Origin: an uncultured Gammaproteobacteria bacterium
GTDB lineage: Bacteria > Patescibacteriota > Microgenomatia > UBA8517
Direction: 5' to 3'
Length of the DNA: 64,000 nucleotides
NCBI GenBank assembly: GCA_964541395.1
Contig: CAZIPM010000001.1
Location: forward strand, 3,833 to 67,832
Part shown: positions 3,161 to 19,696 of the stretch, piece by piece
How the letters are laid out: each line of letters starts with the position of its first letter
How positions within the stretch are numbered: position 1 is the first letter of the stretch
Notes under the pieces: generated by a model
What the model saw: only the letters and a program-made list of their open reading frames with translations
Databases searched by the model: none
What the model was told of the DNA's origin: nothing
Program-made: the position numbers and the translations under genes

Positions 3161-3346
3161 ATGAGTGATCCATATGCAACAAATAATGTCTCTCCACTAT
3201 TAATCGCAGAATTAACCAGGGCTTTGGAAAGTGTCAACGATTATGGCAGCGTGGAAATAATAATACAGGGTGGTATCGTTACTCAGATCAGTACCAGAAA
3301 AATTAGAAAGACCAGTGCCCAGGCTAAGTCAAATAATAACTCTTGA
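3161..3346 (+). CDS. small YezD/DUF2292-like protein
   Basis: 61 aa. ...YGSVEIIIQGGIVTQISTRKIRK resembles the DUF2292 core (GSV.i..qdGkVvqIe.tekir). The start overlaps the stop of the upstream gene (TAAAATG). Confidence 0.4.
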   Translation: MSDPYATNNVSPLLIAELTRALESVNDYGSVEIIIQGGIVTQISTRKIRKTSAQAKSNNNS

Positions 3347-3419
3347 CAAGCCTAAAATATTTAGCTATAAGTTATTATTACATTAACATTATAAGCTAAG
3401 GATTTATAAGCTGACCGCG

Positions 3420-3476
3420 AACGGAGGCTTTCTTCCCTCAATTGATTTTGGGGAAAGGAAGCCTCCGTTTTCGTTT
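3420..3476 (+). terminator. rho-independent terminator downstream of the YezD-like gene
   Basis: An imperfect stem of about 15 bp, aacggaggctttcttccc / gggaaaggaagcctccgtt, followed by ttttcgttt. Confidence 0.5.
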
Positions 3477-3563
3477 GTAACGGAAACGGTTTTAAAGTGC
3501 TCTCTTAAACCAGGTACTGAAAAGTAGCTGGGGAGAACAAATGAAAGGGGGTGAATAATATAA

Positions 3564-4823
3564 ATGAATAAATACCAAAAAGCAGTAACAGCTGCTGTAG
3601 CGGCTGGAACATTATTACTTCAAAGTTTTATGCCCATTTTTGCGGCAACGATAATAATTTCTGGAAACGGAACTGATTCCGACAATACAGCAGATGTAGA
3701 ATTAAATCACTCAGTAAGTGTTACTCAATCAAATTATGCGGACGTTAAAAACGATGTTGACGCATCAGCGACAACAGGTAAAAACGAAGCCGAGGGTAAT
3801 ACCGGAGGCGATGTTTCTATCGAAACAGGTAGCGCAGATACAACAGTAAATGTAAGCAACGATTTGAATAAAAACGTAGCTAATGTAGACTGCTGTGGAG
3901 CAACTGATTTTGAAGTCGAAATTTCCGGAAACGGAAAAGACTCAGATAATAAAGTTGACCTGGATTATAACGAAAAAACTTCTGCAGTAACAGTTTCACA
4001 AGAAAATTATGCAGATGTTGAAAACGATATAGATGCAACCTCTTCTACTGGTAAAAACGAAGCTGAAGACAACACGGGTGGAAATGTTTCTATTGAAACC
4101 GGTGCTGCAACAACTGAAGTTACCGTAGGAACGGCAGCTAATGTCAACTCCGCAAGAGTAGGAGGTGGCTCATCACAAGGTGGGTCAGTTTCAGCTCTAA
4201 TCTTGGGTAACGGCAAGGACAGCGACAACAAGATCGACCTAGATCTTAGTAGCTGGGTAGCCTTATACCAGGATAATTATGCAGATGTTGATAATGATAT
4301 CGACGCTGCAGCTTACACAGGTAAAAACGAAGCAGAAGACAATACCGGAGGTGAAGTATCCATAGAGACCGGAAAAGCAGACGTAACCGTTGAAGTAGAC
4401 AATTCAGTAAACTTCAACTTTGCAGATGCCAATTGTGGATGCTTATTAGAAGATCTTTTGGCTAAAATCGCTGGAAACGGAGTAGACTCCGAAAACAAGA
4501 TTGAAGCTGAAATAGGATCAGGACTTTCTGTAGATCAAAGCAACTGTGGAAGTGAAGAGAAAAAGTCTGAAGATTGTGAGTTAGACAACGATGTTGATGC
4601 ATTTGCAGGTACTGGCTTGAACGAGGCAGAGGATAATACCGGAGAACCGGGCGATGATCCTTCAATCGAAACTGGCGCAGCGGCTTCGACCGTTGAGTTA
4701 GGCAATTCAGGCAATACAAATGTATACGGTGCGAGTGATGACTGGGAATTACCAGGATTCGATTTCAATCTAAACTTTTCTTTCAGTTTATCTGAACTGT
4801 TAGATTTGTTAGGACTGAACTAA
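3564..4823 (+). CDS. secreted repeat protein with four tandem modules of about 100 aa each (novel family; module core GNGxDSDN...NYADVxNDxDAxxxTGKNEAEDNTGGxVSIETG)
   Basis: Signal peptide MNKYQKAVTAAVAAGTLLLQSFMPIFAAT. Four recognisable internal repeats, with CC/CGC motifs between modules. A strong SD (aaagggggtg) lies upstream of the ATG. Confidence 0.7.
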   Translation: MNKYQKAVTAAVAAGTLLLQSFMPIFAATIIISGNGTDSDNTADVELNHSVSVTQSNYADVKNDVDASATTGKNEAEGNTGGDVSIETGSADTTVNVSNDLNKNVANVDCCGATDFEVEISGNGKDSDNKVDLDYNEKTSAVTVSQENYADVENDIDATSSTGKNEAEDNTGGNVSIETGAATTEVTVGTAANVNSARVGGGSSQGGSVSALILGNGKDSDNKIDLDLSSWVALYQDNYADVDNDIDAAAYTGKNEAEDNTGGEVSIETGKADVTVEVDNSVNFNFADANCGCLLEDLLAKIAGNGVDSENKIEAEIGSGLSVDQSNCGSEEKKSEDCELDNDVDAFAGTGLNEAEDNTGEPGDDPSIETGAAASTVELGNSGNTNVYGASDDWELPGFDFNLNFSFSLSELLDLLGLN

Positions 4824-4927
4824 ACCGTACTTTTGGGATCTGGAGGGATTAAGCTTGCACTTAGCTAATCTCTCCGGAACCAGAAGACGAAAGTAAAAAA
4901 AATAAGAAGTTAAAAAAGAATAACAAA

Positions 4928-7213
4928 ATGACGGAAATTAAAAGAATATTTACGGGGTTACTTATTGGAATATTATTAATAGCCAATAATTCGTTTGTGC
5001 TGGCAATTGAACCTCCACCTGCAGCAACTCCACCACCTGCAGCAACTCCTCCGCCAGCGGCGACACCACCGTCTTCCACTATTAATCCTGTGGCAACTAT
5101 TACTCCACCACCTGCAGCAACTCCACCGCCAGCCTGGACACCTGCTGCAACAACAACAAATTCTCCGCAAGCATCCGGAGCGGGAGCTACAGCTACACCA
5201 AAACCAACCAAAACGCCAAAACCGGCAACTCCGACTCCTGCTCCTGCAGCGATTACATCAGGACAACCAACTCCTTCAAGTTCAACAAATGAACTAGTGG
5301 CACCCGTTAACAGTGAAGATACAGGAGGTCAGGATGGGGATGGAGGATTTGGTGCAACAATTACTACCTCTGATGCAAATAATACCGGAGCAATTGCCAA
5401 TAATGTTAATAGTAATCTTGCCGTAGTCTCAGGTGACGGCAGTAGTGGAGCGACGGTTGTAAATTCCGGAAATGGAAGTAATTCCACCAATTCAGGATCA
5501 TTATCTATTACAGGAGGAGACAATACAAATCAAATAAATAGCGCTGTAGTTAATAATAATTTGGCTTTAGTTTCGGACAGCGGAGACAATTCCGCTTCAG
5601 GTAATACCGGAGGAGATTCCGTAATATCAACCGGGAATGCAAATGTCACAGGTACAATAATCAATTCAGTTAATACAAATGTTTCTGGGATAAATGTGGC
5701 TGAATTTAACATAGTTGAGGATCACATGGGTGATCTTATCTTGGATTTTTCAGGAGCTTGCCCAATAAGTGGTTGTATCGGGTCAATTTACAATGTTGCA
5801 AACATTGATAATGGGTCAGGGTCAACGAACACAGCCTCCATTGATTCGGTAATTGATAATACAACTTTCCAGAATAATGACGCTACTGTTGAGAATAATA
5901 TGACTTTAGTTGCCGAAAGCGGTGAAAATAAAACGAACTATAATACGGGAGGCGATTCGTCTATAACAACAGGTGACGCAAACGTATCTGCAAATATTAT
6001 GAATTTTGTCAACAATAACATAGCAGGAGGAGTAGTCTATGCAGTTGTAAATATTTTCGGAGAATTGATCGGCGATATAATATTACCAGGTGGTATTTCA
6101 ATACCATGTTGTTTAGGGAGCAGCGATATTAATGCAATTAATTCGGATAACGGTTCAAATTCAACCAATAATATTAATTTGGATATTACCGATAACACAA
6201 ATTATGATCAATTTAACTCGGTAGACATAACCAATAACCTTATCTTTGATGCCAACTCAGGAAGAAATGAAACAAGTGATAATACTGCCGGAAGTTCGTC
6301 TGTAAAAACAGGGAATACTTCAGTTGACGCGCAGGTATTAAATATTGCCAATACGAATATAATCGGGGGAAATTGGTGGTTGGTACTGGTTAATGAGGCA
6401 GGAAACTGGGTAGGAAAAATATTAGGTGCTGACGGGCAATCTTTCGGAGGTTCCGACGGATTTAACTTTACTGTCAATGAATCAGGAGAGATTACAGTTA
6501 TGAATTCAGGTAACGGCAGTGACACAAATAATACTGTAAATGTTAGCGAAACTACAAATAATTCAGTTACTCAAAACAACACTGCAACTTTGGTAAATAA
6601 TGTAAATCTGACTGCTGACAGCGGACACAACTCAGCTTCGAGTAACACCGGAGGTAATTCATCAATCCAAACTGGTGATGCAAATATAGTCGCCAACATC
6701 GTAAACTTTGTGAATAATAATATTATTGGATCGGGTAAACTATTCGTAACAGTTGTTAACGTATTTGGAAATTGGATTGGTGATTTCAAAGGACCGGGTT
6801 TTGAAGAAAATATTGAAGATAATTCTGATTTGGCAATCGGAGGAGCGGAAGTTAATAATTCGGCGTCTAATGAAAATTTAAATGAAAATAGCAATCAAGA
6901 TAATAATATTCCATCTACAACCAACAGTCTCTCAAGATTTGTTAATGACCCGGTTAATGCGTGGAATAGTGCTAATAATGATGTCATCTCAAATTCAACA
7001 AACGAGTCCCTTACATCCGCCGGTCAGAAAGTTGCTAAGATATTAGGTTCATCTACAGTTACGAAAGATTCAAATGGAAAAAAGAAAGTTACCATAAATC
7101 TTGCCTGGCTACTGTTAGGTTTGTTCCCATTGGGATTAACAACAGGAGTATTAAGAAGAAGACAGTATATAAAAAATATAATCCTTAAATACAGGAGTAA
7201 TGGGAAAACTTAG
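4928..7213 (+). CDS. large cell-surface repeat protein (Pro/Ala/Thr linker, NTGG...S(I/V)xTGxAN modules, C-terminal hydrophobic anchor plus basic tail)
   Basis: Signal peptide; PPPAATPPPAATPPPAAT linker; multiple modules SGDNSASGNTGGDSVISTGNANV / SGENKTNYNTGGDSSITTGDANV / SGHNSASSNTGGNSSIQTGDANI; C-terminus ...LAWLLLGLFPLGLTTGVLRRRQY. Confidence 0.7.
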   Translation: MTEIKRIFTGLLIGILLIANNSFVLAIEPPPAATPPPAATPPPAATPPSSTINPVATITPPPAATPPPAWTPAATTTNSPQASGAGATATPKPTKTPKPATPTPAPAAITSGQPTPSSSTNELVAPVNSEDTGGQDGDGGFGATITTSDANNTGAIANNVNSNLAVVSGDGSSGATVVNSGNGSNSTNSGSLSITGGDNTNQINSAVVNNNLALVSDSGDNSASGNTGGDSVISTGNANVTGTIINSVNTNVSGINVAEFNIVEDHMGDLILDFSGACPISGCIGSIYNVANIDNGSGSTNTASIDSVIDNTTFQNNDATVENNMTLVAESGENKTNYNTGGDSSITTGDANVSANIMNFVNNNIAGGVVYAVVNIFGELIGDIILPGGISIPCCLGSSDINAINSDNGSNSTNNINLDITDNTNYDQFNSVDITNNLIFDANSGRNETSDNTAGSSSVKTGNTSVDAQVLNIANTNIIGGNWWLVLVNEAGNWVGKILGADGQSFGGSDGFNFTVNESGEITVMNSGNGSDTNNTVNVSETTNNSVTQNNTATLVNNVNLTADSGHNSASSNTGGNSSIQTGDANIVANIVNFVNNNIIGSGKLFVTVVNVFGNWIGDFKGPGFEENIEDNSDLAIGGAEVNNSASNENLNENSNQDNNIPSTTNSLSRFVNDPVNAWNSANNDVISNSTNESLTSAGQKVAKILGSSTVTKDSNGKKKVTINLAWLLLGLFPLGLTTGVLRRRQYIKNIILKYRSNGKT
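5012..5068 (+). repeat. 18-bp tandem repeat x3 encoding (PPPAAT)3, with a partial fourth copy near 5104-5136
   Basis: cctccacctgcagcaact / ccaccacctgcagcaact / cctccgccagcggcgaca, read directly from the sequence. Confidence 0.7.
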
Positions 7214-9028: not shown

Positions 9029-9637
9029 TTAAAGTGTGTTTGTACCTCCTGTAACGTCAAGAGTAGACGTGCTATCTGCACTATCGGTTGTTATACCGAC
9101 ATTTCCGCCACCGGTATTGTCTTTAACTTTATTTCTTCCAGTCCTAGATTTTGCTTTAACTTTAGCAAAAACTCCAGTAAAAGATTCCTGCTCAATAGTT
9201 GAGCTGGATGATTTATTAACCGTTACCTTATTGGTGGATTTTTTTGCGTTACCAGAAATATCAACAGTGCTTCCGTTTGGTTCACTGTTTGGTTGGCAGC
9301 AACATGGATTTGACATGTTATTGCTTCCGCCAGTAACTGTCAGAGATGCATTCGATGTGGCACTTCCAGTATCGATTGTTTTATCTCCTGCTCCTGTATT
9401 TCCAGATACTATATTTCCACCAGTTGATGATGTTGCAGATACGCTGGCTAGAACCAATGTATTTGTTTCTTGCTCAACTGTACAATCGCTAGTGTTATTG
9501 TAAATAATAGTGTTTGTTGATTTTTTAGCGTTACCTGTGATTGTCAGATTCTCGGCAAATACTGATGGAGCAAACGATCCAAATAATATCGCAGCTGTTG
9601 ATACCGCAACAGAAACTTTATATGCTAGTTTATTCAT
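9029..9637 (-). CDS. secreted repeat protein (two modules), paralog of the 3564 family
   Basis: Signal peptide MNKLAYKVSVAVSTAAILFGSFAPSVFA, similar to the 3564 N-terminus. Modules ITGNAKKSTN...STGGNIVSGNTGAGDKTIDTGSA. A CCC motif (NPCCCQPN). A strong SD, aggaggtg, on the minus strand. Confidence 0.65.
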   Translation of the reverse strand: MNKLAYKVSVAVSTAAILFGSFAPSVFAENLTITGNAKKSTNTIIYNNTSDCTVEQETNTLVLASVSATSSTGGNIVSGNTGAGDKTIDTGSATSNASLTVTGGSNNMSNPCCCQPNSEPNGSTVDISGNAKKSTNKVTVNKSSSSTIEQESFTGVFAKVKAKSRTGRNKVKDNTGGGNVGITTDSADSTSTLDVTGGTNTL

Positions 9638-9942
9638 TTAATTATCACCTCCTTTCTAATTTAAAATAAATTATTGATTTAGATTCATGAAAATGGAGAT
9701 TTAATCGAATGAAGTTATGAAATGATCTTAAACTAATTGTATTACTCATATAATGCCTCCGGTGGCGGTCAGCAAAATGTATCCAATAGTTTATCAAGTT
9801 ATTACACTATAGTGTCAACTGTATCTTTCACAATATTTTTAGTAACTAAATGTGTCAATAATATAAAAGCTAGGTTATCAAAAAAAGTAAGATAAATAGG
9901 TAATGATTGTAAATCACATTGTAAAATAATATGATGATATAA

Positions 9943-12237: not shown

Positions 12238-15219
12238 ATGAAAGTACTCATTACCGGTGGAGCAGGATTTATAGGGTCAAACTTCATTTACTATTGGTTA
12301 AAAAACCACCCCAAAGATAAAATACGAGTTTTAGATGCTTTGACGTTTGCCGGTAATAAAGATAATTTAAAACCTGTTCTTAAAAAATTAGAATTTATTG
12401 AAGGAGATATAACCAATAGGGATCAGGTAAAATCTGCAATGAAAGGTATTGATACTGTTGTCCATTTTGCCGCAGAAAGCCATGTGGACAGATCAATTTT
12501 TGAACCCGGCAAGTTTTGGAAGACCAATGTAGAAGGTACAAGAATTTTACTCGAAGAAGCTCATTATGCAAAAATACCAAGATTCCATCATGTGTCCTGC
12601 TATGACACGCAAACCAGGGCATTTACAAAAGAAGGTCTCAAAACTTATGATCAGATGAAAATTGGAGATTTGGTATTAAGCATTAATCTAAAGACTCAAG
12701 ATGTTGAATGGAAACCGGTTGAAAAGGTCATCATTCAGGACTACAAAGGAAAAATGATTCGGATGAAAAGTAAAGTTGTTGACTTTTTTGTGACTCCAAA
12801 TCACAGGATGCTTGTTCAGGCAAAAAGAAGCAGGGATTTATCTTTTAAGGATGCAAATTTTGTAAAAGATCAGGCTAGGAATTTCCTTCCTTATTACTAC
12901 CAGTGGAAAGGCAAATCTTCCAAAATTATTAAACAATTCGGTACTTGCCAAAAAGAATTTATGTATCTGCTGGGAATTTTTATCGGTGACGGATTTACTG
13001 CATATCAGGAAAAAAAACAAATCAACAAAACAGGATTGTCAAAACAGATGTATTGTCAGTTAGCCAGAGACAGTATGGGTAGGTTTATGCAAGTCTGTCA
13101 GATTGGGGATCAAAAATATACGATATCAAAATCATGGAGGATATTTTTGGATATTCCTGAAAAGGATGAGTGTAGAACCATGTGTGAATCCGCACTAACA
13201 AGACTAGGTATAAATTGGCATGCCCACAAAGGTAAGGCGGGAACTCATTTGTATATGACCTCAAAAAAGTTATTTGATATTTTTTCTGATTGTGGGAAAT
13301 ATGCAAAAAATAAACAAATTCCCGATTGGGCAGTGGATGCGCCACTGGAACTGTTGATGAATTTATGGAATGGATTGATGGATTCGGACGGAAGCAATCA
13401 TCGGGTGTTTTTTACCATTTCGCCTAAACTAGCCTATCAGTTTATGGAGCTAAGCGTAAAACTTGGTTACACTCCCACATTGAGTAAGCGATACACAAAA
13501 TCAATTTATGAAGGTCGAAATATTGAAGGTTGGTCATATGTCATATCGGTCGGATCAAGGCAAAGGATTTTAAGGAAAGAAATTTCTGAGGAAGTTGATT
13601 ACGATGGGAAGATTTGGTGTCTTAAAGTCAAAAACAACAAAAATTTCTTAATTGAAAGAAATGGAAGAACCGCTTTCTGTGGAAATACCGATGAGGTTTA
13701 TGGTGAACTGCCTTTGGATTCTAACGAACGCTTTAGTGAAAAAACTCCATATGCTCCCAGACCAGACAATTTGTATGCAATCAGTAAAGCTGAAGCAGAT
13801 AGGGTGGTTAGGGAGTTCTACAAAAGTACGGGAATGTATTTGACCATTTCTAACTGCTCCAATAATTATGGTCCATTTCAATTTCCTGAAAAATTTGTAC
13901 CCATTCTGGTTACCAACTTGATCGACGGACTTAAAGCTCCCGTTCACGGAGATGGGAAAAATGTCAGAGATTGGATACACACGGATGATCACGCAAAGGC
14001 TGTTGATTTAATTTTGGAAAAAGGAAAAGCTGGTGAAACTTACTTGGTTGGGAGTAATGTAGATGTTGCCAATATATACATTGCAAAACATATAGTAAAT
14101 CTGTATGGCAAAGATGAAAGCTGGATCCGTTATGTCCCTGACAGACACAGTAATGACAGAAGGTATGCAATCGATTCAAGAAAAATAATTCAGGAACTTG
14201 GTTGGAAGCCGGCTATAACCCGAGACAATTTTGATGATGGTTTAATGGATACTATCTCCTGGTATAAAAAGAATAAAGATTGGTGGAAGCCGCTTCTTTC
14301 CAGACAAACAGTAGTAGTTGACGGTGACAGTAAAATTTATGCATTTATAGAAATTGATAGGGAGTTAGGTAAAACCAAATTTAATTATGGTGAACCTGAA
14401 GAACACAACAAAGTTTCTAAACTTGCCGAAAAGATGATGGAGGAAGATCCCAGGAAAATATCTCTAATTAAAAAGAAAATCAAAAGTCACTATTGGTTTA
14501 AAAATTCTAAACCTGCTATACAAGACTCACTATTGGAACTTATTAAAATATCCAGAACATCAGGGTTTATTGAAGATCTGGCCAACAGACCGGAGGTTGT
14601 TGGTGGGTACACACAAAATAAAGTAGTTAAATTTGAACATTCACCAGACAAAAAACAAATCTATGGTGTAGCTATCTGGTTTGAAGTTGAAAACACTAAA
14701 GGTGAGAAACACATAGAAGGCTTTTATTCATGGGCTATGGGGGTTAAATCGGGAGCCAAAATGTTGGTTTTAATCCGTTACAAAAACGAAATAACCCATT
14801 TAGCCCTGACTAAGGAACAAAAATTTGCAATAGGTTCAGAAATCTACAATATGCCGGGAGGATTTCCAAAAATAAATGAAAGTGTTTTTGATTTGATACA
14901 CAGAAAACTTGAAGATGATTTGGGAGTGGATGTTAAAGACGGACATATTAAAGTCGGTGATATCATAGGTTTGGGTAGGATCATGCCTGATCCAGGTATG
15001 ACCAATAACCATCCATTTCTTTATGCCATAGTTTTAGATCTGACTGAAAACATCTTTCCCCCAATTAGAATCGGAGAGGTCTATGAAACAGGGGGAAAAT
15101 TGGTACTATGGCCTATTGAGAGATTATCTGAGCTGGTAAATAAAGTAGACGACTCATATTTCCTATCCTCACTTACAAGACTAATGCTTTCAGGGGTTAC
15201 TAGTCTAAAGTTAAATTAA
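12238..15219 (+). CDS. rfbB: dTDP-glucose 4,6-dehydratase interrupted by an intein, with a C-terminal Nudix-hydrolase-like domain fused
   Basis: Extein N: MKVLITGGAGFIGSNF...RFHHVS. Extein C: TDEVYGELPLD...YAPRPDNLYAISKAEAD...NYGPFQFPEKFVPI... (RmlB signatures). After about residue 700 comes an extra 300-aa domain with a degenerate Nudix box, PGGFPKINESVFDLIHRKLEDDLGV. Confidence 0.85.
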   Translation: MKVLITGGAGFIGSNFIYYWLKNHPKDKIRVLDALTFAGNKDNLKPVLKKLEFIEGDITNRDQVKSAMKGIDTVVHFAAESHVDRSIFEPGKFWKTNVEGTRILLEEAHYAKIPRFHHVSCYDTQTRAFTKEGLKTYDQMKIGDLVLSINLKTQDVEWKPVEKVIIQDYKGKMIRMKSKVVDFFVTPNHRMLVQAKRSRDLSFKDANFVKDQARNFLPYYYQWKGKSSKIIKQFGTCQKEFMYLLGIFIGDGFTAYQEKKQINKTGLSKQMYCQLARDSMGRFMQVCQIGDQKYTISKSWRIFLDIPEKDECRTMCESALTRLGINWHAHKGKAGTHLYMTSKKLFDIFSDCGKYAKNKQIPDWAVDAPLELLMNLWNGLMDSDGSNHRVFFTISPKLAYQFMELSVKLGYTPTLSKRYTKSIYEGRNIEGWSYVISVGSRQRILRKEISEEVDYDGKIWCLKVKNNKNFLIERNGRTAFCGNTDEVYGELPLDSNERFSEKTPYAPRPDNLYAISKAEADRVVREFYKSTGMYLTISNCSNNYGPFQFPEKFVPILVTNLIDGLKAPVHGDGKNVRDWIHTDDHAKAVDLILEKGKAGETYLVGSNVDVANIYIAKHIVNLYGKDESWIRYVPDRHSNDRRYAIDSRKIIQELGWKPAITRDNFDDGLMDTISWYKKNKDWWKPLLSRQTVVVDGDSKIYAFIEIDRELGKTKFNYGEPEEHNKVSKLAEKMMEEDPRKISLIKKKIKSHYWFKNSKPAIQDSLLELIKISRTSGFIEDLANRPEVVGGYTQNKVVKFEHSPDKKQIYGVAIWFEVENTKGEKHIEGFYSWAMGVKSGAKMLVLIRYKNEITHLALTKEQKFAIGSEIYNMPGGFPKINESVFDLIHRKLEDDLGVDVKDGHIKVGDIIGLGRIMPDPGMTNNHPFLYAIVLDLTENIFPPIRIGEVYETGGKLVLWPIERLSELVNKVDDSYFLSSLTRLMLSGVTSLKLN
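12598..13686 (+). mobile_element. intein (363 aa) with a LAGLIDADG homing endonuclease, inserted between Ser and the catalytic Thr of the RmlB 'TDE' motif
   Basis: It begins with C (CYDTQTRAF, block A) and has block B VTPNH. Two LAGLIDADG motifs are present (LLGIFIGDGFT and LWNGLMDSDGSN). It ends ...NFLIERNGRTAFCGN followed by T(+1)DEVYG. The host motif FHHVS|TDEVYG is perfectly restored once the insert is removed. Confidence 0.8.
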
Positions 15220-15553: not shown

Positions 15554-15708
15554 ATACCCTGTAGTAATTGTTTGTTTAGCTTCAATTTGATATAATACAC
15601 CCAGGTTTGAAGTACTTTGAAAACCTAAAGAAAGAGGCATAAGGCGGTAGGATTGGACACCCTATTTGCGAACAGCCTAATATAGTCATCAGCTTTGAAA
15701 GGAAAAAA

Positions 15709-17088
15709 ATGAACATCCAAAGCATGAATGAACTACCAGAAAGCGTGTTAAAACGCCTTCCTCGGAGTGCAACATTTCCGATCAAGGGCAGTCAGCAGGC
15801 GCTGGTAGGCAGAATCGACTGGGCGAAACAGGTGATAACCCGCGCAGTCGTTACGACCGAATGGCAAAAGTCGGCCACATTCGAGGGACGAGTTCCCGAA
15901 GAGTTTATGGCCAGTTTGCCGAAAGATTTCACCTTCTCGGTAGATTCTCCCGAGGATCACTGGCAAATTCATCTGACGGGTCTGAACCCCAGAACTTTTG
16001 AGGTTGAAGATCTTAAGGTGATCCGCGATGATGCAAAGTTTTGGTACTACATCATGGCGGCAGAGAATCAAATGGCGGTGCAGGAATATGAGCTTGTTTT
16101 CGCGCGCGTGTGGGGCTATCTTGCTCCCATTTTGCGCATCCGCGAAGGCTCTGCACAGCCGATGACTGGTCGAAGGTTAATTACCGTTGAAACAGCAGGA
16201 CCGGGTGGATACATTGGTGCTGTAGTGCCGAGCCTCCAACTGACTGATCAGTGGAGACTGCTGGTGCAAAAAGCAAACAATGTCTCTCCAGACCTGACAG
16301 CAATCCCAACGATGCGGTCAGTGCGCTTCTCCGTCCAAAATCCGGACAGACCTCAACCTAGGGAAAAAGCCATGGGCTTCTCCTTGTATGAGGTGGATTT
16401 GTTCCCCGAGCTAATCGCTTCGGGAGCAGCGGAGGAAAAAGGCAGAGTAAAGAATAACTTCTATTGGTGCTTGCCGGATTTTGAAGCACCGGAAGGACAG
16501 TCTTTCATGCCTCTGGGAGACTACCTTCGATACTCAGACGGCCCAGGAATGGCAGCGCTTTATCAGGCCATTGTTTTCCTGTTTCGTGCAATCGTGGGTG
16601 GTGAGCTCCCCGGCCAGCGTGATGAGGTAGCAAATTTCCCAGTTGACCCGAAAGAGTCATATGGGACGCCGATTCGCGTTGGTATTATTCGTCACAGAAA
16701 AGTGACCTTCGTGGTTTGCAAGACCAAAAACCAAGGTCGCTTCCGGCGGAGTGGCGAAACACTAGCAGCATCACAAGTTGCATGTGAGTTTGATCCGTCA
16801 ACACTTCCTGTCCCACCCAGGAAGGTTCACAAGTTTTGGGCAATCAACCCAAATAACCAGCGTCACACTGGTACAAACACCGCCGCAGGTCTCTATCCTG
16901 TGGAGGTCTATGAGTACCATAGCTGGGAAGTGGACAAAGGGGAACTGGAAATGGTGAACTTGTGCGATTTCGCACGATCTGGCGATGCCAGAGCACAAGC
17001 AGCACTACTTCAGTGGATCTGGTGGGTGTATCCAGGATTTGCAACTTTGAATCCGGATACTGACAGTATTCCTTCGTCCGAGGAATAG
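15709..17088 (+). CDS. hypothetical protein encoded in a GC-rich (about 50%) compositional island; likely horizontally acquired
   Basis: A long uninterrupted 459-aa ORF whose codon usage and GC are strikingly different from the about 33% GC surroundings. I recognise no family. Flanked by hairpins. Confidence 0.55.
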   Translation: MNIQSMNELPESVLKRLPRSATFPIKGSQQALVGRIDWAKQVITRAVVTTEWQKSATFEGRVPEEFMASLPKDFTFSVDSPEDHWQIHLTGLNPRTFEVEDLKVIRDDAKFWYYIMAAENQMAVQEYELVFARVWGYLAPILRIREGSAQPMTGRRLITVETAGPGGYIGAVVPSLQLTDQWRLLVQKANNVSPDLTAIPTMRSVRFSVQNPDRPQPREKAMGFSLYEVDLFPELIASGAAEEKGRVKNNFYWCLPDFEAPEGQSFMPLGDYLRYSDGPGMAALYQAIVFLFRAIVGGELPGQRDEVANFPVDPKESYGTPIRVGIIRHRKVTFVVCKTKNQGRFRRSGETLAASQVACEFDPSTLPVPPRKVHKFWAINPNNQRHTGTNTAAGLYPVEVYEYHSWEVDKGELEMVNLCDFARSGDARAQAALLQWIWWVYPGFATLNPDTDSIPSSEE

Positions 17089-17445
17089 AAAATACTGTCT
17101 AGTACTTCAGACTTAACACTTTGTTCTATACACCCCGAATTTGGGAAATATTATAAACCCTGTTCGGGGTGTATGAAGTGAAGGTAAGTGTTTGCCACAG
17201 TTTCCAATGCGGAAACTGATTGAGGCGAGCGCTAGCCTTTAAATTTGAATCGGGTGCTTATTGTATAGCATTCGAAAGGATAGATGGAATGCTTCCATCT
17301 GGGACTTCCGGGGAAATACCTGGAAACAAACCCAAAACCCTTTCGAAAAAATAAAAACAATAAGTACCCGCCCAAATATATGATTTTAAATCTTGTTGAA
17401 ATCATGTATTTGGGATGAATATGTTTATGCTATAATCAACTTAAC

Positions 17446-18207: not shown

Positions 18208-18481
18208 GTTTATCTATACGAAGTTATGAACCTCATTTAAACATGAACCTCTTGGATGAAAAAGATAGAAAAAAAAGAAAAGGCCTAATAAAATTGAGTA
18301 CAAAATTATCTAATTTAAATAATGACAAAAAAATTGTACACCCAGAGAATTAGCAGACATACTGAAAAATAGAATTAATAGACTTAAACTAAATAAAAGG
18401 TTAATGTTTGAGACTGTTTTTTATCTTGTTATCCCGAAATTTCAACTTGACAAATTGAAATTTAAGGGTCATACTATCTCT

Positions 18482-19696
18482 ATGAAGCCAAGAACAATCT
18501 CGAAATTGATTCATAAGGTGATTAAAACTTTTCCTGCGATTGTTTTAACAGGCCCGAGACAGTCAGGTAAAACAACCCTGTTAAAACATGAATTTCCCAA
18601 CTATCAATATGCAAGTCTGGAGGATCCTGATGTAAGAATCAGAGCCAAAGATGATCCAAACGGATTTTTGAATCAGTTTGAAAAACAGGTTATTTTAGAT
18701 GAAATTCAATATGTTCCAGAACTCTTATCATATATAAAATCAAAAATAGATGAAAATAGAATGCCGGGAAAATGGATTTTATCCGGATCCCAAAATTTTT
18801 CTTTGATGAAGAATGTAAGTCAATCATTGGCAGGAAGAGCTGCCATCTTGACACTCCTACCCTTTTCCGTTGCTGAAAGAATTGGGAACGGGAACGGCTC
18901 ATTATTGGTAGATAAAGTTTTAAGTTTAAGTAGCGAAAGTAATTTAAAATCAAAATTTGATTTAAACGAAATTATTCTCCGTGGTAATTACCCTGAAGTG
19001 GCTAGTAATACAAAAGTTGATCGTCAAATCTGGGATGGATCTTATATCAATACATATCTTGAAAGAGATATTAGAAACTTGAAACAAGTAGGTGATTTAG
19101 GTCAATTTGAAATATTCCTGCGTGCTTGTGCAATTCGTACAGGACAGATATTGGATTTAAGTTCAATATCTAGAGAGATTGGAATTACCTTTACAACGGC
19201 TAAAAGATGGCTTTCACTTCTGGAAACTGGTTACCAAATATTTCTTTTACATCCATATTATCGAAATATCGGAAAGAGATTGGTTAAAAGACCAAAAATT
19301 TACTTTGCTGATACCGGGCTTGCCACTTATTTAATGGGTATAAATTCTGTTAACAGTTTAGTTTCTAGTTACCTTTATGGGGCAATTTTTGAAACATTGA
19401 TAGTTACTGATTTTTGGAAAAGATACTTTCATCATGGTCAAATTCCTCAGATGTACTTTCTACGAACGCATGATGATTTAGAGGTTGACTTATTAATCGA
19501 GAATCAAAATAAGCTGAATTTGATTGAAGTTAAATTAACATCAACAGTTAGAAAAGAGAATATCCAATCTCTTATCAAAGCGAGGACAGACATCAGAGGT
19601 GTTGATAAAACATTGGTTATCTCAAATACTAAGGAAAAGTTTTCTGTTGTTGAAGGGATAACCAATATTCCTGCGGAGTCGGTGTTAACTGTCTAG
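18482..19696 (+). CDS. AAA-family ATPase with DUF4143 C-terminal domain
   Basis: MKPRTISK...VLTGPRQSGKTTLL (Walker A) ...QVILDEIQYVPEL (Walker B-like), the typical AAA_14/DUF4143 architecture. The track start at 18404 adds 26 residues that are probably not translated. A TTGACA lies upstream at about 18446. Confidence 0.65.
   Translation: MKPRTISKLIHKVIKTFPAIVLTGPRQSGKTTLLKHEFPNYQYASLEDPDVRIRAKDDPNGFLNQFEKQVILDEIQYVPELLSYIKSKIDENRMPGKWILSGSQNFSLMKNVSQSLAGRAAILTLLPFSVAERIGNGNGSLLVDKVLSLSSESNLKSKFDLNEIILRGNYPEVASNTKVDRQIWDGSYINTYLERDIRNLKQVGDLGQFEIFLRACAIRTGQILDLSSISREIGITFTTAKRWLSLLETGYQIFLLHPYYRNIGKRLVKRPKIYFADTGLATYLMGINSVNSLVSSYLYGAIFETLIVTDFWKRYFHHGQIPQMYFLRTHDDLEVDLLIENQNKLNLIEVKLTSTVRKENIQSLIKARTDIRGVDKTLVISNTKEKFSVVEGITNIPAESVLTV

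Follow-up and report, generated by a model that had tools for sequence, protein, structure and literature searches.

A GC-rich accessory gene of Woesebacteria with a predicted tandem Nudix product and a putatively folded, end-paired mRNA

The stretch of DNA analyzed here, referred to as the window, comprises 64,000 nt of contig CAZIPM010000001.1 and carries at 15709-17088 (+ strand) an open reading frame (ORF), here called gene X, whose composition, transcript and product are the subject of this study. Gene X encodes a 459-aa protein, protein X, with a predicted tandem Nudix fold. The protein was deposited as OGM02833.1, "hypothetical protein A2115_03335", of Candidatus Woesebacteria bacterium GWA1_41_8 from Rifle groundwater. 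In the window, gene X lies between an rfbB fusion gene together with a 108-aa gene on one side and a gene for a 253-aa Nudix protein on the other. This is the only genome in which rfbB, rfbC and rfbD, a dTDP-rhamnose cluster, adjoin gene X.

The GC content of gene X was 0.512, compared with 0.341 for the remaining window (whole-window mean 34.5%). Among all 1380-nt segments of the 64 kb (mean 0.345, standard deviation 0.034) gene X was the maximum, and the second highest segment, near 4100-4101, reached 0.447. GC contents at the first, second and third codon positions (GC1, GC2 and GC3) were 0.585, 0.435 and 0.515, while the corresponding means for the window were 0.416, 0.335 and 0.287, the GC3 reference being calculated from 49 ORFs of the window (standard deviation 0.045). 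CGN accounted for 68% of the arginine codons in gene X and 20% in neighboring genes, and among the two-fold codons both the C-ending and the G-ending ones were used at about 0.5 compared with 0.28. A sequence-only reading of this DNA had described a GC-rich island consisting of the gene and its flanks. The island is real for the gene, but its flanks were just mildly raised (0.36 on the 5' side and 0.41 on the 3' side up to 17350, with other intergenic regions at 0.25-0.38).

The stretches of the contig 10 kb past either end of the window had 30-34% GC and carried envelope genes. Across about 85 contiguous kb (window 1-64000 with L013 and L015) nearly all genes encoded glycosyltransferases, PMT/YfhO-like proteins or sugar-nucleotide enzymes, also at 30-34% GC. 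By convention, GWA1_41_8 as a bin name stands for a genome of 41% GC. If that holds here, the 85-kb region may itself be a GC-poor envelope super-cluster, and the excess of gene X over its genome would be about +10 points, like that of its relatives. The junctions of gene X were identical in separate ENA, JGI and NCBI assemblies, and a chimeric assembly is therefore unlikely. The only variant contig at the window's own locus, L041, was a short fragment with identical sequence.

Protein X had no sequence match in Pfam, NCBIfam, PHROG, PADLOC or PDB, searched with both single sequences and profiles, in agreement with the earlier remark that no domain could be recognized. Among 5.8 billion clusters, eight relatives were detected (42-62% identity, 454-463 aa). 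When 1.84 billion representatives were searched exhaustively with a profile, only 11 matches were obtained, including five more distant full-length proteins and three short single-domain ones. A wider profile of 16 sequences retrieved no further members of the family, and a metagenome scan returned only a contig that was already known. Thirteen proteins, with identities as low as 29%, retained the full-length ORF. Close orthologs differed at codon positions 1, 2 and 3 at 0.15, 0.09 and 0.47, with synonymous changes exceeding non-synonymous ones, and this concentration at third positions indicates that gene X is a real coding gene. No homolog of protein X was present in 185,579 GTDB representative genomes or in viral contigs, and tblastn searches of phage and plasmid records gave no match to gene X. 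The proposal that the gene might derive from the host of an episymbiont therefore found no backing.

In five lineages (L001, L002/L003, L004/L005, L010 and L011) gene X was located directly upstream of rho. Three longer contigs carried a YfhO-like glycosyltransferase gene upstream of gene X and a LysM-M23 peptidase gene after rho. Protein X diverged in the same order as Rho and the M23 peptidase. Between L002 and L004 the identities were 93% for Rho, 90% for M23 and 79% for protein X, and between L001 and L002 they were 75%, 60% and 46%, respectively. The sequence-only reading had held that conservation of the gene in vertical context across relatives would speak against horizontal acquisition, and such conservation was found in part, in the form of the rho arrangement and the shared order of divergence. 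In a neighbor-joining tree the window copy was nested among rho-linked copies (L001 and L010) with 96% bootstrap support. Its position in the rfb cluster therefore appears to be derived, and the rho-linked position is probably ancestral.

The GC contrast of gene X could be calculated with ample flanking sequence in four lineages. It was largest for the window copy (0.512 with a flank GC of 0.341, +17 points), and gene and flank values were 0.507 and 0.401 in L001, 0.454 and 0.354 in L002, and 0.432 and 0.353 in L004. In L009-L012 gene X had 0.475-0.503, with short flanks of 0.32-0.44. The rho-linked copies in five other lineages were about 5-10 GC points above their surroundings. GC3 of gene X and the adjacent rho were 0.554/0.354, 0.424/0.246 and 0.364/0.226 in the three measurable lineages, an excess of 0.14-0.20, and the shift to CGN (Arg), GGT/GGC (Gly) and C- and G-ending codons recurred in every ortholog. 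Because every ortholog shows the same excess, high GC is weak evidence for recent transfer, and because the excess persists through a divergence shared with the neighboring genes, the composition of gene X is unlike a decaying foreign signature. These results suggest that high GC is a lasting and maintained trait of the gene X family, tied to a structured mRNA, and no trace of host DNA.

More than 100 Rho proteins shared 80-92% identity with the Rho of L001, and many were encoded on contigs of 0.1-1 Mb, while the X family comprised about eight clusters. Gene X thus seems to be missing from more than 100 lineages with such a Rho. In L017, whose Rho is 92% identical to that of L001, there was no gene X at the rho locus. 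A different, GC-rich gene of 206 aa occupied its place between the 23S-IVP gene and rho, and DNA homology between L001 and L017 ended past the IVP gene and restarted at the rho promoter. The region upstream of rho is therefore a variable hotspot, and gene X, as far as its distribution can be read from sequence data, is an accessory gene of a few Woesebacteria only. The 206-aa gene of L017 (7128-7748, GC 0.51) encodes a Thr/Pro-rich, lipoprotein-like product. The same contig contains a 76-aa gene after rho (9608-9838, GC 0.50), a BrnT/CopG toxin-antitoxin pair, a PT-HINT protein and a Y1 transposase gene.

Gene X resembles classical genomic islands in being a patchily distributed, accessory compositional outlier at a non-ancestral location, absent from relatives or found at another locus in them. 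Unlike such islands, it is a single gene without hallmarks of mobility. There was no tRNA in the window, and no integrase and no direct repeats beyond chance at the borders, where the neighbors are sugar and Nudix genes; moreover, its atypical composition persists in copies that diverged along with their neighbors. Recent horizontal acquisition, with a donor composition that has not yet drifted, would nevertheless account for the derived position in the rfb cluster and for the patchy distribution around a variable pre-rho region. In its strict form the donor would be the host of an episymbiont, and in its weak form a Woesebacterium of 40-43% GC. The combined fraction of Gly, Ala, Arg and Pro (GARP) was 0.29 in the window copy compared with 0.25 in orthologs. 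The amino acids are thus most GC-shifted in the copy that also has the largest GC contrast, which is the opposite of a slow drift toward the host. However, all orthologs, including the rho-syntenic ones, exceed their hosts in GC3, no homolog was found beyond the small clade in the collections named above, the borders lack mobility genes and repeats, and composition alone fails to explain a folding excess over shuffles of the same composition (described below). Recent acquisition is therefore considered rather unlikely. The horizontal-transfer idea of the sequence-only reading survives in weak form only. The gene is accessory, patchy and out of place as that idea would have it, but its high GC does not serve as evidence of a recent foreign origin. 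Lateral movement within the Woesebacteria clade is an option, weakly held, because of the extreme GC and GC-shifted amino acids of the window copy.

The promoter region of gene X is located at 15556-15603 (+), with a -35-like TTGTTT at 15568-15573 and an extended -10 TGATATAAT at 15588-15596. This DNA aligned with all seven other loci (TTGAC-type -35, TGnTATAAT extended -10). Based on the promoter geometry, transcription is predicted to start at about 15603-15604, and the GGTTTG at this predicted start was invariant in all eight loci. The leader contains a stem-loop at 15635-15678 (+) that consists of an outer 4-bp stem, a symmetric 5x5 internal loop (RUAAG / GAAYR) and an inner 8-bp stem. RNAalifold analysis of the eight leaders gave 12 pairs in all eight loci, seven of them with compensatory double changes. 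The leader thus shows the covariation in different lineages that characterizes a cis-regulatory RNA. A Shine-Dalgarno-like GAAAGGA was seen in the sequence at 15697-15703 (+), with AAGAGG at the same place in relatives. Neither the leader nor the coding region nor the 3' tail of gene X matched an Rfam family. A search for the leader motif in 596 Gb of representative genomes gave 21 matches in unrelated taxa, compared with about 16 by chance according to a rough estimate, and these were regarded as noise.

The predicted 5' end of the transcript, GGUUUGAAGUACU at 15604-15616 (+), is complementary to a site 12 nt after the stop codon, UAGUACUUCAGACUU at 17100-17114 (+). The two arms would form an end-closing helix of -16.7 kcal/mol as calculated by RNAduplex. 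Across the loci, a helix of 10-13 bp was predicted between the first 11-13 nt of the leader and a site 12-29 nt past the stop (-14 to -17 kcal/mol), and in seven of the eight loci the 3' arm was the best partner of the 5' arm on the sampled sense strand. In a hand-registered alignment of this helix 95% of the cells paired, compared with 18-51% when the partner was slid. Two pairs displayed compensatory changes (GC to AU and AU to UA), and of eight exceptions to Watson-Crick pairing four were single-side G-U substitutions, which are tolerated on the sense RNA only.

Pairing between 5' and 3' untranslated regions occurs in some bacterial mRNAs, such as icaR of Staphylococcus aureus, and RNase III processing stems flank rRNA genes. 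As in both of these, the helix of gene X would join the 5' end of a transcript to a 3' site and enclose functional sequence. Among the differences, the body enclosed here is protein-coding, and the 5' arm predicted from sequence comprises the very first nucleotides and not the ribosome-binding site. End protection or processing is therefore likelier, on the predicted geometry, than translational repression.

Because inverted repeats (GGTTTGAAGTAC ... GTACTTCAGAC) surround the ORF in all eight loci, gene X could also be read as a small piece of mobile DNA that ends in terminal inverted repeats and prefers insertion ahead of rho, in line with its patchy presence, the variable insertion region and the one relocation event. 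However, homology among the loci extends at least 45 nt past the left repeat, through the promoter, and this together with the compensatory and G-U pattern favors RNA pairing over DNA terminal repeats. The predicted Nudix fold of the product is no transposase, recombinase or nuclease fold. Unlike transposable elements of this type, the unit is present in one copy per locus, lacks a target-site duplication and had no match in mobile-element collections. A mobile element is thus very improbable.

The folding of the coding RNA was compared with that of synonymous-codon shuffles, in which neither the encoded protein nor the codon usage was altered. Each of the eight orthologs of gene X folded significantly better than its shuffles (z -3.1 to -6.9, with the window copy at about -7), while 17 control genes of ordinary GC from the same contigs gave z values of -1.3 to +1.4, and four controls in another comparison gave -2.07 to +0.19. 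When shuffling was restricted to blocks of 40 codons, so that local composition was preserved, gene X gave -3.4 to -7.3 and five ordinary-GC controls -2.0 to +0.9. A specific conserved RNA fold inside the coding region was considered and rejected, as only 0.24-0.40 of the pairs were kept, no more than in slid controls. It is overall foldedness that is maintained and not a specific architecture, which fits selection for a compact, nuclease-resistant mRNA.

These results bear on two other explanations. In the first, gene X would be an ordinary highly expressed gene adapted to preferred codons (CGT/CGC, GGT and NNC). The use of CGN, GGT/GGC and C-ending two-fold codons in every ortholog, the strong conserved promoter and a milder C-ending shift in the rho of L001 are consistent with this. 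However, G-ending codons rise like the C-ending ones (0.39-0.58 vs 0.21-0.32), which they do not in rho, the first and second codon positions and the amino-acid content are also shifted to GC, and shuffles that preserve codon usage still leave the folding excess. Codon adaptation alone is thus an improbable account. In the second, the locus would be a structured non-coding or dual-function RNA gene with a secondary or spurious ORF. Islands of high GC in an AT-rich genome are often the sign of structured RNAs, and such a gene would agree with the pairing of the ends, the structured leader, the folding of the body and the extreme structure of the 3' tail. Against it stand the full-length ORF in the 13 proteins, the third-position divergence typical of a coding gene, the confident and recognizable fold predicted for the protein, the failure of individual predicted pairs in the coding region to be conserved and the lack of an Rfam match. 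An RNA gene of this kind and the assembly chimera mentioned above are, taken together, extremely improbable.

An AlphaFold model of protein X, based on an alignment of eight sequences, was mostly beta, with a predicted local distance difference test score (pLDDT) of 75.4 and a predicted template modeling score (pTM) of 0.67, and displayed the Nudix alpha/beta/alpha fold. The best structural match by two methods, over nearly the full length, was EvaA (PDB 4J7G), a dTDP-4-keto-6-deoxyglucose 2,3-dehydratase. Foldseek gave E 1e-7, about 440 aligned columns and a template modeling score (TM-score) of 0.31. Comparison of halves of the family alignment with hhalign matched residues 238-300 to residues 387-447 (probability 94.5%, E 7.5e-8), revealing an internal duplication. 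The model therefore has two tandem Nudix-fold domains in about 450 aa, as in the EvaA-type nucleoside diphosphate (NDP)-hexose 2,3-dehydratases (4J7G; PF03559), and weak Nudix matches were also obtained in the BFVD viral fold library. In EvaA, the two Nudix-fold domains arose by duplication and only one pocket is active, with the acidic pair E139 and E190 of pocket A as catalytic residues, and its homologs belong to actinomycete antibiotic-sugar pathways (PMC8987622). In protein X, residues E161, R203, R206 and D277 were invariant within the family, and there is also an 'ETAGPGGYIG' loop.

The tandem Nudix fold is a fairly firm prediction of the model, and the orphan label given to the gene earlier is thus too strong. 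Protein X is predicted to represent a divergent, previously unannotated two-domain Nudix-fold family with an EvaA-like match, and judged from the model its fold class is a known one, of which it forms a new and highly diverged variant. In contrast to canonical Nudix hydrolases (PF00293), none of the 16 family members contained the Nudix box GX5EX7REUXEEXGU in a strict or relaxed regular-expression search. Protein X is therefore probably not a pyrophosphohydrolase. Homology to the two flanking Nudix-like proteins, the 253-aa protein and the C-terminal extension of RfbB, was examined and rejected, as no profile similarity was found. The placement of gene X beside RfbB and these two proteins is suggestive and could be a coincidence. 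With low confidence, protein X may bind or modify a nucleotide-linked sugar, in this genome most obviously the compound made by RfbB, whose gene is the second one upstream; membership among the 2,3-dehydratases is not established by the model.

Taken together, the explanation to which we give about an even chance is that gene X forms a self-contained accessory unit, with a GC-rich, folded and end-paired mRNA and a tandem Nudix product, that was moved or re-acquired into the rfb cluster. The unit consists of the promoter, the leader stem-loop, the ORF and the post-stop site complementary to the first 12-13 nt of the predicted transcript, and relatives in seven or more other lineages have these four parts in common with it. 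Its GC would be kept high by selection for an mRNA that is heavily folded, paired at its ends and probably long-lived and well expressed. Ancestrally the unit would have been upstream of rho, and its arrival in the dTDP-rhamnose cluster of this genome would reflect either a move or re-acquisition from a different Woesebacterium.

Several observations weigh against this explanation. The window copy has both the largest GC excess and the highest GARP value, which would also fit a recent arrival. The start site, the end pairing and the high expression are predictions only. Other GC-rich genes showed the same folding effect more weakly, as at 3564-4823 of the window (z -5.9 with global and -2.1 with block shuffles) and at 3240-5665 of L001 (z about -3.5), and because the coding helices are unconserved among orthologs, the excess could stem from an unrecognized sequence bias of GC-rich genes. 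As for the product, its identity to EvaA in the structural match was 9-10%, and its domains must be arranged differently, as the low TM-score indicates. Profile searches of PDB sequences did not retrieve EvaA, PF00293 did not match even at E<=10, and PF03559 (Hexose_dehydrat) matched none of the 13 full-length members at E<=5-10. Gene X also differs from EvaA-type dehydratase genes in lying beside rho and not in a deoxysugar pathway. The neighbors in the five other lineages are rho and glycosyltransferases, the conserved neighbor being rho and no sugar gene, and no evident 3-ketoreductase or aminotransferase partner was found for a follow-up step.

A bolder form, which we regard as unlikely and offer as a conjecture, would place gene X in a small set of genes of Woesebacteria, members of the candidate phyla radiation (CPR), with GC-rich, heavily folded, end-tied and protected mRNAs, and would make protein X the founder of a new branch of tandem Nudix-fold enzymes with a nucleotide-linked substrate and a tie to rho or envelope glycosylation. 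If the protected-mRNA explanation is true, GC islands in AT-rich CPR genomes would often reflect selection at the RNA level and not transfer. A sharp GC island in such a genome would routinely be put down to horizontal transfer, whereas gene X passes on its unusual composition by descent, coupled to what appears to be selected mRNA folding, so that caution in genome scans is indicated. The EvaA-like family offers a testable lead to nucleotide-sugar chemistry in organisms with largely unknown envelope biology. Two concrete RNA elements outside Rfam, both predicted here and previously undescribed, are the stem-loop of the leader and the helix that would close the 5' and 3' ends.

The intergenic region after gene X (17089-17445, 357 nt) folded at -141.7 kcal/mol, compared with -75 +/- 5 for shuffles (z about -13), and the + strand was 25 kcal/mol more stable than the - strand. 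It contains four strong structures, all given here for the + strand. Hairpin 1 (17128-17174) pairs 17128-17139 with 17163-17174 around a 23-nt loop; the 13-bp perfect hairpin reported earlier thus exists, but with 12 perfect pairs and one G-U. Hairpin 2 (17179-17240) is a long G-U-rich stem that includes the 8-bp hairpin of the same reading, which is exact (17198-17205 with 17211-17218). A branched structure of 120 nt (17251-17370) follows, closed by stems of 14 bp (CGGGTGCTTATTGT / ACAATAAGTACCCG) and 9 bp (TTCGAAAGG / CCTTTCGAA). Hairpin 4 (17371-17414) has a 19-bp AT-rich stem and a 6-nt loop, just upstream of TGCTATAAT. No other copy of this tail was found in the window or at the loci of relatives. 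It may act as a terminator or stabilizer of gene X or as a leader of the Nudix gene.

In the relatives there is instead one conserved long hairpin (GUACCGAGGGGAGA...UCUCCUCUCGGUAC) ahead of the rho promoter. Their intergenic regions between gene X and rho (L001 11387-11637, L010 1931-2189, L011 1884-2155 and L009 1614-1867) contain, past the 3' arm, a second GGTTGC motif similar to 'GGTTGCGAA' of the leader, then the conserved hairpin of 14-16 bp and then the rho promoter TTGACA-N17-TATACT. The same promoter is present in L017, which lacks gene X.

Downstream of the tail, the extended -10 TGCTATAAT (17428-17436) ends 9 nt before the annotated TTG start (17446) of the 253-aa Nudix gene. Because of this short distance, the mRNA of the Nudix gene is either leaderless or has its true start farther downstream, for example at an ATG at about 17470. 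The RfbB gene (12238-15219, +) encodes a dTDP-glucose 4,6-dehydratase with an intein-like insert at about residues 121-472, which had sub-threshold Pfam matches to Intein_splicing, Hint_2 and LAGLIDADG_3. Its C-terminal extension of about 300 aa is weakly similar to the 253-aa Nudix protein (pairwise E 5e-4). An AAA_14/DUF4143 ATPase gene (18404-19696, +) is located between the Nudix gene and rfbC, and its product matches the PADLOC candidate defense family PDC-S01 (E 9e-105).

Two further regions contain GC-rich genes. At 3340-4900 (+, GC 0.41-0.45) the window has its second-strongest GC outlier, which includes the gene at 3564-4823, encoding a 419-aa orphan near a sortase gene. The promoter of this gene is TTGACA/TATAAG, its 5' leader forms a long hairpin (about 3415-3472), and another hairpin lies on the 3' side. 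In L001, three adjacent orphan genes after a sortase gene (3195-5665) have GC contents of 0.51-0.54 and GC3 of 0.50-0.67 on a contig of about 40% GC, and the two that were checked for folding both gave the z of about -3.5 mentioned above, which suggests that these genomes have a class of structured genes with high GC. Finally, a 109-aa ORF at about 1457-1786 of the window (L015 3729-4058) matched Phage_capsid (PF05065) and stands alone among sugar-nucleotide genes. From this match it could represent the remains of a prophage or part of an encapsulin-like gene.

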